This document shows positions 48,682 through 61,577 of a DNA stretch of 64,000 nt, piece by piece. The stretch covers positions 1,248,001 through 1,312,000 of the forward strand of contig CAXXWS020000002.1 in NCBI GenBank assembly GCA_963665325.3, in the 5' to 3' direction. The position numbers and the translations under genes were made by a program. This stretch comes from Alphaproteobacteria bacterium (lineage in GTDB: Bacteria > Pseudomonadota > Alphaproteobacteria > Bin95). The first letter of the stretch is position 1. The number at the start of each line of letters is the position of its first letter. Under the pieces are notes generated by a model, which ran no database searches, was not told the DNA's origin, and saw only the letters and a program-made list of their open reading frames with translations.

Positions 48682-49167
48682 ATGGAGTCGTTTGCACTAG
48701 AGGACATCTCCTACTGGCACTGGCTGGCCTTCGGCGTATTCCTGATGCTGGTGGAAATCCTGGTTCCGGGCGTCGTCTTCCTCTGGCTGGGAATCGCCGC
48801 GGTCTTGACCGGCTTGCTGCTTGCTGTCGTGCCGGACACGGGCTGGCAGGCTCAACTGGTCGTTTTCGCCGTTCTGTCGGTAGCGGCAATCTTCTTCGGG
48901 CGCCGCTTTGTGGCTTCGAGGCAGAGGCCGACCGATCATCCGACCCTCAACCGGCGGGGCCGCAGCATGGTCGGCACGCGCGCCATTCTCCGCGATCCGA
49001 CCGTCAGCGGTCGCGGCCGGATACGCATCGGGGACACGATGTGGGCGCTCCGCCTGGCATCGCCCGAGGGCGAACTCCCGGCAGACACCGAAGTGACGGT
49101 CGTTGAAGTGGACGGCGTGACGCTCGTCGTCCGCGAAATCCCCGAGGAGGCCGTCGAAGACGGCTAG
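48682..49167 (+). CDS. NfeD family protein (YbbJ-like)
   Basis: WHWLAFG..LVEILVPG..LWLG, LNRRG, RIGDTMW. Usual partner of SPFH genes. Confidence 0.9.
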   Translation: MESFALEDISYWHWLAFGVFLMLVEILVPGVVFLWLGIAAVLTGLLLAVVPDTGWQAQLVVFAVLSVAAIFFGRRFVASRQRPTDHPTLNRRGRSMVGTRAILRDPTVSGRGRIRIGDTMWALRLASPEGELPADTEVTVVEVDGVTLVVREIPEEAVEDG

Positions 49168-49254
49168 AGTGGAATCCATTCGAATTGAACCGCAACTGGA
49201 ACCGAACCCAAAACCGTCACCCCGGCCCCCGAGCCGTGTGTGGACGCCTCCCTG

Positions 49255-49500
49255 GATGCAAGCAGTTTTTTCGGCTTGGTCGGGCCTATGCGGTCAGGCG
49301 GAGTCGTGTGTCCGGTTTCCCTTGTGCGGCACTTGAGTTGCCGCGGGCCAGTATGGAGATACGCGGATCGGGTCCATATCGGGGTCATGCGCTCGCGGCG
49401 CGCCGGCTCAGCCTGGTTTTCCCGATCCCGTCTCATTGACCGTTTGCCCTTACCCCTTGCCTCGGCCTGCCTGCATCCTCCGACGGCTCGCCGCACCGCC
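49255..49500 (-). ncRNA. Predicted bridge/seekRNA of the IS1111 element
   Basis: Stem 49365-49372/49421-49428 encloses CGGGGTC (49380-49386) and CCGGCTC (49403-49409), which match opposite strands of target GAGCCGGGGTC. TCGTGTGT (49304-49311) matches the circle junction. RNA ends unknown. Confidence 0.72.
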
Positions 49501-49503
49501 TTC

Positions 49504-50535
49504 TCAGGCGGCTGCGGGAGCCCGGTAGGTCTCCTTCTTCACGGCCAGCGCCCACAGGATGCGCGCCATGCGATTGGCGAGCGCGACGGCGACCAGCTTG
49601 CGCTTCCCTGGCTTGCTCGCCAGCAGGCGCGCCAGCCAGGGATCGTTGCACTTGCCCCGGCGGATGGCGTTCTGGATCACCGACATCGCCCCGACCACCA
49701 GCAGGCGGCGCAGGTCCTTCTGGCCCATCTTCGAGATCTTGCCGAGCCGCGGTTTGCCGGCTGTACTGTGCTGGCGGGGCGTGAGGCCGAGCCAGGCAGC
49801 GAAGTCGCGCCCCTTGCGGAAGGTTTCGAGCGGCGGGGCCAGGGCCTGGAGCGCCAGCGCCGTGACCGGCCCCACCCCCGGCACGGTCATCGCGCGGGCC
49901 GCCTCCTCGTCCTCGCGCGCGGCGGCCCGCAGCGTCCGGTCCAGCTCTCTGACCTTCCCGTCCAGCTCGGCGATCCGTTCCAGCAGCAGTGCCCCCATCT
50001 CGTGCGTCAGCGCCGGCAGAGACGCCCCCTCTTCGCCCTCAAGTGCCCAGGCCAGACGTGCCACATGCGCCGGCCCCTTGGGAGCTACAAGGCCGAACTC
50101 CGCTAGATGGCCCCGCAGCGCGTTGATCGTCTGCGTGCGCTGGCGCACCAGAAGCATGCGCACCCCCAACTGCATCGCCCCCGCCTGGCTCTCCTCGCTC
50201 TTCACCGTCACGAAGCGCATGGTCGGGCGCTGCGCCGCCTCGCAGATCGCCTCCGCGTCCGCCGCGTCGTTCTTCTGCCGCTTCACATAAGGCTTCACAT
50301 AAATCGGCGGGATCAGACGAACCTCATGGCCCAGCTTGCCGATCTCGCGGCCCCAGTAATGCGCACCCCCGCACGCCTCCATCGCAACCGTGCAGCGAGG
50401 TTGAGACAACAGAAACGCCAGAACCCGACCCCGCGACAGCTTGCGACGGAACGCCACCGAGCCGTCCGAATACGCGCCGTGCATCTGAAAGCTGTTCTTC
50501 GACAGGTCCACCCCGATGATGCTAACCTCCTTCAT
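49504..50535 (-). CDS. IS110 family DEDD transposase/recombinase
   Basis: GVDLSK, MEAC and KNDAADA (DEDD), VPGVGP, WLGLTPRQHSTAGK (catalytic Ser region), VALANRMARILW. GGAGG RBS. Appears intact. Confidence 0.96.
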   Translation of the reverse strand: MKEVSIIGVDLSKNSFQMHGAYSDGSVAFRRKLSRGRVLAFLLSQPRCTVAMEACGGAHYWGREIGKLGHEVRLIPPIYVKPYVKRQKNDAADAEAICEAAQRPTMRFVTVKSEESQAGAMQLGVRMLLVRQRTQTINALRGHLAEFGLVAPKGPAHVARLAWALEGEEGASLPALTHEMGALLLERIAELDGKVRELDRTLRAAAREDEEAARAMTVPGVGPVTALALQALAPPLETFRKGRDFAAWLGLTPRQHSTAGKPRLGKISKMGQKDLRRLLVVGAMSVIQNAIRRGKCNDPWLARLLASKPGKRKLVAVALANRMARILWALAVKKETYRAPAAA

Positions 50536-50748
50536 TGGATGCCTCCTTCCCATTGGGGGTTTCAACAACACCACCATGGCACATTGCGATGCCGTCGGAT
50601 GGAGGCGTCCACCCTATCGGGGTCCAGAACCGCCTTCGAAATTTGGTGAAGCTCCGGTAGGCTGGACCCCGGATCTCCGCTCCGCTCCGTCCGGGGTGAC
50701 AATTGAGGCTGCGCCTTCGACTTCGTTTCAACTCGAACGGACCGTGCT

Positions 50749-52044
50749 CTAGCCGGGCGGTCCCAGGCGGCGCACCCGGATTGCCAGAATTGCGGCCTCT
50801 GCGCCGTAGCCGGCCATCCAGGCGGCTAGTCCGATGACGGCGCCGTTGCCCCCCGGCAGCAACAGGGAGATCGCTGCAACCAGAGTGGCGGCGAAAACGC
50901 GGCCAAGCCCCGAAACCGCGAGCGCGCCTGTAACCCTCGCGCCCGCAAGCATGCCGCGAAAGACTGCCGACAGGCCCCAGAAGGCGGCCATGAGGAATGC
51001 AAACTGCATGGCCGGGGCGCAATAGGCTTCCAGCGCCGGCTCCAGGCCCATGGCGTCGGAAAGGACAAGGCGGTCCAGCGGTGTGTGGAACAGGAGCAGG
51101 GCGACAGCCCCGAAGAACAGCATCTGCTGCCCGGCAAACTTCAGTATCACGCGCCTGTCTTCGATTCGGCGCACGAGCGTCTGGGCGCTTTGCACCAGAT
51201 TGCGCAGCGGACTGAGCATCAGGCCCGCCAGGCCGTATACGATTGCGAACGCGGCGAGCGCCAGGTCGGGATTTGGAAGCCGGCCGAGGAACACGCTGAT
51301 GGCGAAGACCATCCCCATCTCGGCCGAGGTATTCAGCATCAAAGGCCAGGAAAAACGCCATTGCGCTCTCACGGTCGGCGGCGCTTCGCCGTGTTCGGGC
51401 AGTCCGGCATAGATGCGCCGGGCGAAGAAGACCGCTACCGCAGTCTCGCAAAACATGGCGAAGACCAGCGCACCGGCGCCGACTGCAGCTCCCTCCAGCA
51501 CGAGCGGCAGTACGACGAGCGAGCCGGCGAGCGAGCCCAGCCGCGCGACAGTCGCCCAGGTGATGAAGATCGTCTTCTGTCCCATCATCAGCAGGCCGAA
51601 GGCGACCGACCGGCAGATCAGGATCGGGGCGCTGAGCGACAACAGGAAGGTCGCCGTCTTCGCCTCCGCGACCGCGGCGTCGCTGATTCCGAACAGCGTC
51701 TGGAACGCGAAATCGCCGATGGGCGTGAAGGCCAGCACCTGCGCGACGGCCCAGGGGACGGCCACGATGACGCCCATGAACCGCAGTAGATGTGCGAGAG
51801 CGCGGCGGCTGCGGAGGTAGGAAAGCGTCAGGAGCGAGCAGACTTCCGTGCCGCTGGCGATGGAATAGTAGAGCGTGAAGGCGCTGTGAAAGGCCGCGAG
51901 CACGATGCTGCTGTCATCCATGCGCGCGAGGAAAGCGTTGATGACCGTCTTCGAGATCATGTTGAGTTCGGTCATGAAAATGAGCGGAACGAAAAACCGG
52001 TAGCAGGTTCCTAAAGTGAGTCCCCCTGCTGCCGCCCCGCTCAT
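50749..52044 (-). CDS. MATE/MOP-superfamily-like membrane protein (ANKH-like)
   Basis: ~12 TM segments in two repeats, each starting (F/W)RF..PL. FFVPLIFMTELNMISKTVINAFLAR. Confidence 0.65.
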   Translation of the reverse strand: MSGAAAGGLTLGTCYRFFVPLIFMTELNMISKTVINAFLARMDDSSIVLAAFHSAFTLYYSIASGTEVCSLLTLSYLRSRRALAHLLRFMGVIVAVPWAVAQVLAFTPIGDFAFQTLFGISDAAVAEAKTATFLLSLSAPILICRSVAFGLLMMGQKTIFITWATVARLGSLAGSLVVLPLVLEGAAVGAGALVFAMFCETAVAVFFARRIYAGLPEHGEAPPTVRAQWRFSWPLMLNTSAEMGMVFAISVFLGRLPNPDLALAAFAIVYGLAGLMLSPLRNLVQSAQTLVRRIEDRRVILKFAGQQMLFFGAVALLLFHTPLDRLVLSDAMGLEPALEAYCAPAMQFAFLMAAFWGLSAVFRGMLAGARVTGALAVSGLGRVFAATLVAAISLLLPGGNGAVIGLAAWMAGYGAEAAILAIRVRRLGPPG

Positions 52045-61263: not shown

Positions 61264-61367
61264 CAGACGCGCAGCAGGGCCTTCGCGGGCTGAGAATGGG
61301 GCCTCCGGCGGCGGCGATGCCTTTGGCGTGAAGGCGCTTCGCGGGCGGCAGCGTCGAGCCGGAGAAC

Positions 61368-61571
61368 TAGAGCACGGTCTGTTCGAGTTGAAACGAAGTC
61401 GAACGCGCAGCCTCAATTGTCACCCCGGACGGAGCGGAGCGGAGATCCGGGGTCCAGACTACCGGAGCTTCACCAGGTTTCGAAGGCGGTACTGGACCCC
61501 GGCTCGGAGGCCGGGGTGACAGTTTTGGGTTCGGTTCCAGTTGCGGTTCAATTCGCTTGGATTCCGCTCTA
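61368..61571 (-). repeat. Intact REP-containing MITE (family 1) with an empty IS1111 target site
   Basis: TAGAGC...GCTCTA ends, inverted pair of GTCACCCCGG..CCGGGGTCCA palindromes, uninterrupted GGACCCCGGCTC at 61494-61505. Confidence 0.88.
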
Positions 61572-61577
61572 AATTGC

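Follow-up and report, generated by a model that had tools for sequence, protein, structure and literature searches.

The insertion sequence and its insertion sites

We analysed a stretch of 64,000 nt (hereafter the window, whose positions are used throughout) from the genome of an Alphaproteobacteria bacterium (Bin95; assembly GCA_963665325.3, contig CAXXWS020000002.1, positions 1,248,001–1,312,000 of the forward strand). Our subject is an insertion sequence (IS) at 49237–50619, which belongs to the IS1111 group of the IS110 family and is predicted to encode an RNA that guides its recombinase to a repeated hairpin of the host. Its parts are:

49237–50619, minus strand: whole IS1111-group element, 1383 bp, three identical genome copies, junctions defined by comparison with empty sites
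50536–50617, minus strand: left end, 82 nt, with the 5-nt terminal extension ATAGG at 50613–50617
50601–50612, read on the minus strand: left subterminal inverted repeat GTGGACGCCTCC, 12 bp, 5 nt from the left tip
49504–50535, minus strand: transposase/recombinase gene (tnp), 343 amino acids (aa), start codon ATG at 50535 preceded by GGAGG at a distance of 6 nt
49759–49764, minus strand: codons for T258-A259, Thr-Ala at the conserved Ser/Thr-Gly position
49237–49503, minus strand: right end and 3' non-coding region, 267 nt, encoding the predicted guide RNA
49240–49251, minus strand: right subterminal inverted repeat GGAGGCGTCCAC, 12 bp, 3 nt from the right tip, with the terminal extension ACA at 49237–49239
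49256–49261, minus strand: TTGCAT, a -35-like hexamer that would lie 17 nt before CACGAT if the element were circularised

The length of 1383 bp includes one CG core (50618–50619), the other CG (49235–49236) being assigned to the target. Three copies, 100% identical over 1383 bp each, were found on three replicons of the genome, arguing that precisely this sequence moved very recently. All three sat in the site GGACCC-CG-GCTC, in one orientation and with CG at both junctions. The empty sites carried a single CG, showing that the element inserts without duplication beyond the shared core. The perfect target 12-mer occurred about 25 times in the genome (3 sites occupied, 22 empty). None of the 104 one-mismatch sites was occupied, 20 of them being the variant with GATC for GCTC.

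Elements of the IS1111 group have, according to the 2024 literature, subterminal inverted repeats of 7–17 bp with short terminal extensions. They also have the longer non-coding region 3' of tnp, and a transposase of 330–350 aa (PMC11187229). The element in the window had 12-bp repeats with extensions of 5 and 3 nt, 267 nt of non-coding DNA downstream of tnp versus 82 nt upstream, and a protein of 343 aa. With all group features present at the sequence level, its assignment as an intact-looking member of the IS1111 group is supported.

The recombinase

The protein matched the Pfam domains DEDD_Tnp_IS110 (PF01548, E 3.8e-13, residues 8–147) and Transposase_20 (PF02371, E 3.7e-21), and over its full length the NCBIfam equivalog “IS110 family RNA-guided transposase” (NF033542, 303.6 bits, cut-off 140). 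A longer version of the open reading frame extends to 50577. Among solved structures, phmmer recognized as sole relatives ISCro4 (9t56, E 2.5e-9) and IS621 (8wt6, E 1.4e-7), both through the C-terminal domain. The DEDD residues D10, E53, D90 and D93, within GVDLS, MEACG and NDAAD, matched the ISCro4 motifs in position when the N-terminal parts were aligned, at a low score.

In the C-terminal motif (G-L-x-P-x4-[S/T]-G), which reads G250-L-T-P-R-Q-H-S-T258-A259 in this protein, the Thr is kept and an Ala takes the Gly position. A census of 82 relatives (defined below) gave TG in 38, SG in 34, TA in two (the window element and L009), SS in two and one odd motif, with five lacking it.

The target repeat in the host genome

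The element targets the 5' arm of a GC-rich hairpin with an 8-bp stem, ACCCCGGC-N6-GCCGGGGT, which is dispersed about 25 times in the genome. In the window, one copy of the surrounding repeat is interrupted by the IS and another is whole:

49164–49236, no strand assigned: left part of the interrupted 206-nt host repeat, with the target half ...GAGC-CG (plus strand)
50620–50752, no strand assigned: right part of the interrupted repeat, beginning with GGGTCC and carrying a second, inverted REP-like hairpin (repetitive extragenic palindrome, REP)
61367–61572, no strand assigned: uninterrupted 206-nt repeat in the opposite orientation, with the empty target GGACCCCGGCTC at 61494–61505
61496–61517, no strand assigned: target hairpin ACCCCGGC/GCCGGGGT of the uninterrupted repeat

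The 206-nt repeat is composite, with two inverted hairpins 34 nt apart. BLAST matched it to 23 segments of the genome, of which 12 were at least 150 nt long. According to the site listing, the other hairpin arm adjoined 18 of the 22 empty sites, and 10 of the 22 lay inside the 206-nt repeat. In at least six same-genus genomes the convergent flanking genes were 12–31 bp apart, with neither repeat nor IS, indicating that the repeat, and later the IS, inserted in the lineage of the window.

The preliminary description of this locus had called the target a host REP palindrome. The 8-bp hairpin, its dispersal in about 25 copies and its inverted pairs agree with this; the low copy number (more than 800 REPs are cited for P. 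putida) and the missing REP-associated tyrosine transposase (RAYT) do not. A search for the RAYT domain (Y1, PF01797) gave no match in this 100%-complete genome, and controls were matched in 6 of 14 genomes. “REP-like” is thus a fair label, and membership in the classical REP or REPIN (REP doublet forming hairpins) class is not established.

Two further features of the repeat were noted. The 206-nt unit is bounded by CTAGAG...CTCTAG, with similar inverted ends, and looks like a miniature inverted-repeat transposable element. Its interrupted copy in the window sits precisely between the stops of two convergent genes (TAG at 49165–49167 and TAG read from 50749–50751), both stops falling in the terminal CTAG.

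The predicted guide RNA

The 267-nt non-coding region downstream of tnp is predicted to contain the following RNA features:

49285–49453, minus strand: conserved RNA scaffold, 169 nt, with an outer stem enclosing a target-binding and a donor-binding arm (alignment A1)
49365–49428, minus strand: target-binding arm, with stems P1 and P2, a guide-bearing internal loop and hairpin P3
49421–49428 with 49365–49372, minus strand: stem P1, CCCGATCC with GGATCGGG, found in the minimum free energy (MFE) fold and by RNAalifold
49414–49416 with 49374–49376, minus strand: stem P2, from the fold
49389–49401, minus strand: hairpin P3, GCGC-loop-GCGC, between the two target guides
49403–49411, minus strand: 5' target guide, RNA GAGCCGG (49403–49409), complementary to top strand C-CG-GCTC
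49377–49386, minus strand: 3' target guide, RNA GACCCCG (49380–49386), equal to top strand GACCC-CG and so pairing with the bottom strand
49353–49357, minus strand: UCCAU, facing the left-end extension, a weakly supported candidate for the 5' donor guide
49304–49310, minus strand: 3' donor guide CACACG(A), equal to the last inverted-repeat base, ACA and the core CG (plus the first left-end base)

The 5' target guide lengthens to nine pairs (to 49411) if one G:U is allowed, and the AUA following the 3' target guide (49377–49379) repeats the three initial nucleotides of the left end. The two target guides overlap on CCGG, with the complement of the top strand 5' and that of the bottom strand 3'. 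This is the order described for IS1111 seekRNAs, in which the top-strand-complementary segment precedes the bottom-strand-complementary one and the two overlap at the insertion point (PMC11187229). The 3' donor guide equals the top strand of the predicted circle junction.

The MFE fold included stem P1 and the GCGC hairpin (z = -2.35), and 4 of 200 shuffled sequences folded equally well. The preliminary description had proposed this stem and hairpin. It had also given the element at 49237–50619, the two 7-nt segments CGGGGTC (49380–49386) and CCGGCTC (49403–49409), an apparently intact DEDD transposase followed by about 265 nt of non-coding DNA, the empty site at 61494–61505 and a CG core at both junctions. 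Every coordinate agreed with the sequence, from which the empty site and both cores (49235–49236 and 50618–50619) were also read; the transposase and non-coding region are the 343-aa protein with its Pfam and NCBIfam matches and the 267 nt given above.

Covariation of guides and insertion sites among relatives

Scanning genome contigs yielded 454 confirmed relatives, and we kept the best 80 (47–90% aa identity); with the window element and its relative L004 from the same genome, 82 elements were compared. Both inverted repeats could be anchored in 61. One or both anchors were lacking in 16 elements, owing to contig ends or diverged ends, and five wrongly anchored ones (L020, L022, L070, L076 and L084) were excluded.

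All 61 elements had a constant geometry: flank, 2-nt core, ATGGN-type 5-nt extension, repeat, element body, repeat, ACA-type 3-nt extension, core and flank. Across the family the core was NG, its first base varying between C, T and A before G. The left and right core dinucleotides were:

TG left and TG right: 34 of 61 elements
CG left and CG right: 14 of 61 elements
AG left and AG right: 5 of 61 elements
TG left and CG right: 6 of 61 elements
TG left and TC right: 1 of 61 elements
CG left and GG right: 1 of 61 elements

For the comparison of guides with flanks, six of the 61 elements with flanks shorter than 10 nt were left out, and identical loops were collapsed (55 to 46). The longest exact complement of the 5' guide averaged 6.9 nt in its own right half versus 3.6 nt in the flanks of others. 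The longest exact match of the 3' guide averaged 5.6 nt in its own left half versus 3.2 nt in those of others. None of 10,000 re-pairings of loops and flanks attained the observed match sum, a count that is not a probability, as the relatives share kinship.

Position by position, the 3' guide was identical to left target positions -5 to -1 and the first core base at 0.80–0.91 for its own site and 0.25–0.46 for the sites of others. The second core base reached 0.96 for both, and the first two left-end bases were likewise equally high, i.e., conserved. Complementarity of the 5' guide from the core to right target position +6 was 0.72–0.91 for its own site versus 0.44–0.58 for others, with the offset optimised for both.

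Close relatives showed compensatory changes. L009 (90% aa identity) carried the guides GATCCGG and GGCCCCG, and its site was AGGCCC-CG-GATC. The same-genus L091 and L092 had GGCCCCG together with GGGCCC, and the 5' guides CCGAGCCGG with GCTCGG and TTGAGCCGG with GCTCAAG; in this same-genus comparison L093 had no anchored element. Guide and flank covary in the family, which settles the guide reading beyond what the matches of the window element itself could do. Such covariation among homologues had been set beforehand as a test in the preliminary description, and its assignment of the element as IS1111-type with an RNA guide aimed at the target is borne out by the group features, the guide order and this result.

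Two observations on targets stand apart. In L027, L028, L031, L056, L063 and L073 the left junction was TG and the right junction CG, and the RNA segments of the first four call for CG. The pattern suggests that the site entered and the donor differed in their first core base, and that each junction kept a different one. L015 and L017 target CTGGACCC-CG-GCTC/GATC, almost the same site as that of the window element.

Donor side, fold and predicted circle junction

In 56 of 61 elements the donor hexamer (CACACG at 49305–49310 in the window) was the same as the hexamer formed by that element's right end and core, with 13 different hexamers represented. A reading in which the 3' donor guide continues, handshake-like, into the right target flank fitted L037, L038, L053 and L057 but not L027, L040 and L083, and was dropped.

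The fold of the scaffold covaried as well. Over 54 distinct sequences in alignment A1, 89.7% of the cells of 30 pairs were paired, versus 24–41% in slid controls. Cells with double changes numbered 175 versus 11–39 in these controls, and 20 of the 30 pairs had changed on both sides. None of 500 shuffles attained these values. RNAalifold gave the target arm and the donor hairpin; the outer stem and the stem closing the donor loop were added, and both hold. Element anatomy, site specificity and the covariation of guides with flanks and within the fold were all observed directly.

CACGAT is made up of the core flanked by the two final right-end bases and the two initial left-end bases, and exists only at a circle junction. 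A TTGC-type hexamer was present in 58 of 61 right ends, with the 17-nt spacer in 57 of the 58. The arrangement TTGCAT-N17-CACGAT would resemble a junction promoter, like Pjunc of ISEc11. A terminator scan of 49100–50750 gave one terminator-like site, inside the gene and not above shuffles.

A sister element with another target

L004 (G000:C5:113347-114745), 73% identical to the window element in nucleotides, is present in a single copy on another replicon of this genome (G000). Its loops differ from those of the window element and predict the non-palindromic site AATAA-TG-CTCCAC, which was found empty eight times in the genome. This site is found within a 2.55-kb repeated element (e.g., G000:C1 near 1129510), ~21 nt in from the left end of that element, which encodes an IstA-like protein and IstB and so belongs to the IS21 family. 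Four other copies of the IS21-family element were found at ≥98% identity. L004 itself sits in a degenerate copy, its right junction being TC versus TG in the guide and the empty sites. An alternative core GA with shifted ends was ruled out by the family geometry and the eight empty sites, leaving a TG core with a deviant TC right junction.

The target loop of L004 (L004:1546-1740, minus strand) carried a perfect 23-nt tandem duplication over P3 and the start of the 3' guide. Such a duplication could inactivate the RNA, or could represent guide turnover in progress.

Proposed mechanism and alternative explanations

We are confident that the window holds an intact, recently active IS1111 element with a bridge RNA (seekRNA) that specifies its target. 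The element would comprise the recombinase gene and a 3' region encoding an RNA of ~170 nt with two arms. In the target arm, GAGCCGG would pair with the top strand (core and right half) and GACCCCG with the bottom strand (left half and core), the two jointly specifying GGACCC-CG-GCTC in the 5' arm of the dispersed hairpin. In the donor arm, CACACG(A) would match the right end and core, and UCCAU would face the extension of the left end. If it behaves like ISEc11, ISPa11 and IS621, the element would excise as a circle, bringing TTGCAT to 17 nt from CACGAT. The complex of recombinase and RNA would then pair its target arm with both strands of the site and its donor arm with the circle junction, and strands would be exchanged at the CG core between junction and target. 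For the window element we infer the production of the RNA and its binding by the recombinase, and circle formation, the chemistry and programmability would follow the same published model.

Several observations weigh against this explanation, besides the kinship of the relatives compared. When the 267-nt region was shuffled with dinucleotides preserved, a sense and an antisense core-containing match of at least 7 nt arose together 288 times in 5000, because the target site is G+C-rich and centred on the palindrome CCGG. The loop matches of the window element alone are weak evidence, not significant and at most marginally above chance, and convince only together with the family data. Among the 46 loops, the exact match to the own flank was 4 nt or less in 12 (5' guide) and 17 (3' guide); some of these poor fits were single mismatches, and some flanks did not fit at all (e.g., L052, L065 and L069). 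UCCAU pairs with ATAGG at four of five positions, with a C·A mismatch at the third base. In the family this candidate 5' donor segment was mostly conserved and covaried only at the fourth (1.00 own, 0.69 others) and fifth (0.74 versus 0.49) left-end bases. T-A stands where 72 of the 82 relatives have S-G or T-G, so the recombinase may be less than fully active. Rfam release 15 (E-value mode) gave no bridge-RNA family in 48900–50900, the only hit being a chance microRNA-like match inside tnp (E 0.86), and a sigma-70 scan of 49100–50750 gave no promoter-like site in the integrated copy. One RNA library contained a 163-nt contig identical to 49319–49481. This evidence is thin, since the contig is unstranded, has a depth of 2.3, may stem from DNA carry-over and does not define the RNA ends.

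The protein alone could pick the target, e.g., by recognising the hairpin, in which case the loop matches would be due to chance and the non-coding region would be a 3' untranslated region or terminator. The frequency of such matches in shuffles fits this, and the guide RNA is known here from sequence rather than seen directly. However, the covariation of 46 distinct loops with their flanks already contradicts protein-only targeting. The compensatory single-base changes in close relatives, the eight empty copies of the non-palindromic site predicted by the other loops of L004, and the conserved, covarying fold speak against it too, as does the RNA dependence published for ISEc11, ISPa11 and ISKpn4 (PMC11187229). 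We regard it as extremely improbable. A less distant alternative, rather doubtful but with a real chance of being right, is a short seekRNA consisting of the target arm only, which would also serve excision through target-derived flanks; the “donor guide” would then reflect conserved ends and no pairing. An 82-nt RNA was reported to be sufficient for movement, and published retargeting changed the donor flanks together with the guide (PMC11187229). The limited covariation of the 5' donor pentamer would agree with this, but the 3' donor hexamer tracks 13 right-end hexamers, including the variable core base and the last repeat base, which is hard to explain without pairing.

The element might also be an intact-looking but immobile fossil left by a recent burst and disabled by its T-A motif or by the ATAGG/UCCAU mismatch. 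The rarity of T-A (the window element and L009 only), the C·A opposite the third base of the left-end extension and the 22 perfect sites that are still empty would be expected of such a fossil. We consider it quite unlikely, as the three identical copies on three replicons point to very recent movement with both features present, and TA occurs occasionally at the nucleophile position of IS1111 transposases (PMC11187229). Preferring, as before, an intact and recently active RNA-guided element, we see an evenly balanced case for a more specific reading. Here the window would hold a naturally active Thr-Ala, CG-core bridge recombinase, and natural variation across its compact alphaproteobacterial subfamily would spell out a four-segment code directly. 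The segments would be the core plus 6 nt in the 5' target guide, 5 nt plus the core in the 3' target guide, 4 nt plus the core in the 3' donor guide, and a variable first core base. The same genome would then host two diverged systems aimed at different repeats, a REP-like hairpin and an IS21-family terminus. If so, the subfamily would offer ready-made orthogonal scaffolds with differing cores.

Comparison with known systems

The mechanism, including IS1111 members that target REPs such as ISPa11, was published in 2024 (PMC11208160, PMC11187229, the key papers on bridge RNA and seekRNA in IS110/IS1111), and NCBI naming already reads “RNA-guided transposase”. ISPa11 from Pseudomonas aeruginosa, an IS1111-group element with a demonstrated seekRNA, shares with the window element the DEDD recombinase, the subterminal repeats, the non-coding region 3' of tnp, the guide order and the insertion at a fixed point of a repeated extragenic palindrome (PMC11187229). 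The two were likened by published description, and they differ in host, target and RNA sequence. The target repeat in the window genome is also of low copy number (about 25 perfect sites), and a RAYT gene was not found in the genome.

ISEc11 (E. coli/Shigella, IS1111 group) has the same architecture. For this element a circle with an active junction promoter, an essential downstream non-coding region and a reprogrammable guide are described (PMC11187229). It differs in its linear, non-palindromic target and in that its promoter was shown to be active, while that of the window element is predicted from sequence. IS621 and ISCro4 (8wt6, 9t56) represent the IS110 group of the same protein family, with two loops that each read both strands around a 2-nt core. 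The IS621 core is CT, unlike the CG of the window element and the NG of its family. Further differences of the IS110 group are an RNA upstream of the gene, inverted repeats of 2–3 bp and the reversed guide order (PMC11187229). L004, but not the window element, shares the habit of targeting another transposon's terminus with the known case of the Tn21 terminus, its own target being an IS21 element. A literature search for kin of the element in Rhodospirillales gave nothing specific, and ISfinder and the 2024 supplementary tables, which give predicted RNAs and targets for ISfinder entries, may already list the element or a near-identical one.

To the principle itself these results add nothing; their value is practical and descriptive. 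They provide a well-bounded IS1111 element that is present in three identical copies, has known empty sites and shares its genome with a sister element aimed elsewhere. The programmable RNA positions in the subfamily are delimited by about 46 pairs of natural guides and targets. The first core base varies naturally across the family, and the window element carries a rare Thr-Ala nucleophile motif. For annotation, a 267-nt “intergenic” stretch and a 206-nt host repeat are no longer anonymous non-coding DNA.

Further copies and relatives

Seven full-length IS110-family genes in G000 scored above the NCBIfam cut-off: the three of the window type, L004, a pair at C1:1707031 and C1:1919388, and one at C4:880018. 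In addition, L005 (G000:C1:1733445-1733620) is a lone fragment that matches the left end and first codons at 91% identity; no gene body adjoins it, and it is probably the remnant of an older copy. A megablast search of a plasmid collection gave no copy covering ≥80% of the window element, only partial matches of 74–83% identity, labelled “IS110 family transposase” or unannotated. The same-genus genomes G003 and G018 contained at least 11 and at least 14 copies, respectively, of 74–78% relatives.

Four RNA-library runs, available as contigs, covered the element patchily (49319–49481 and parts of 50121–50583); such contigs give no strand, ends or level, and the parts left uncovered are uninformative. 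Contigs from runs X1, X2 and X7 matched only a 42–45-nt stretch of the scaffold around 49412–49456 and then diverged, one divergent end resembling the loop of L010-type relatives. Relatives with other guides thus seem to be present in the same communities.

Nine relatives (L015, L016, L020, L022, L035, L070, L083, L085 and L088; 48–70% aa identity) came from bins labelled Chloroflexota, Longimicrobiales, Terriglobia, Myxococcota, Acidobacteriota, Thermoflexales and Phycisphaerae, owing either to horizontal transfer outside the Alphaproteobacteria or to errors in binning.

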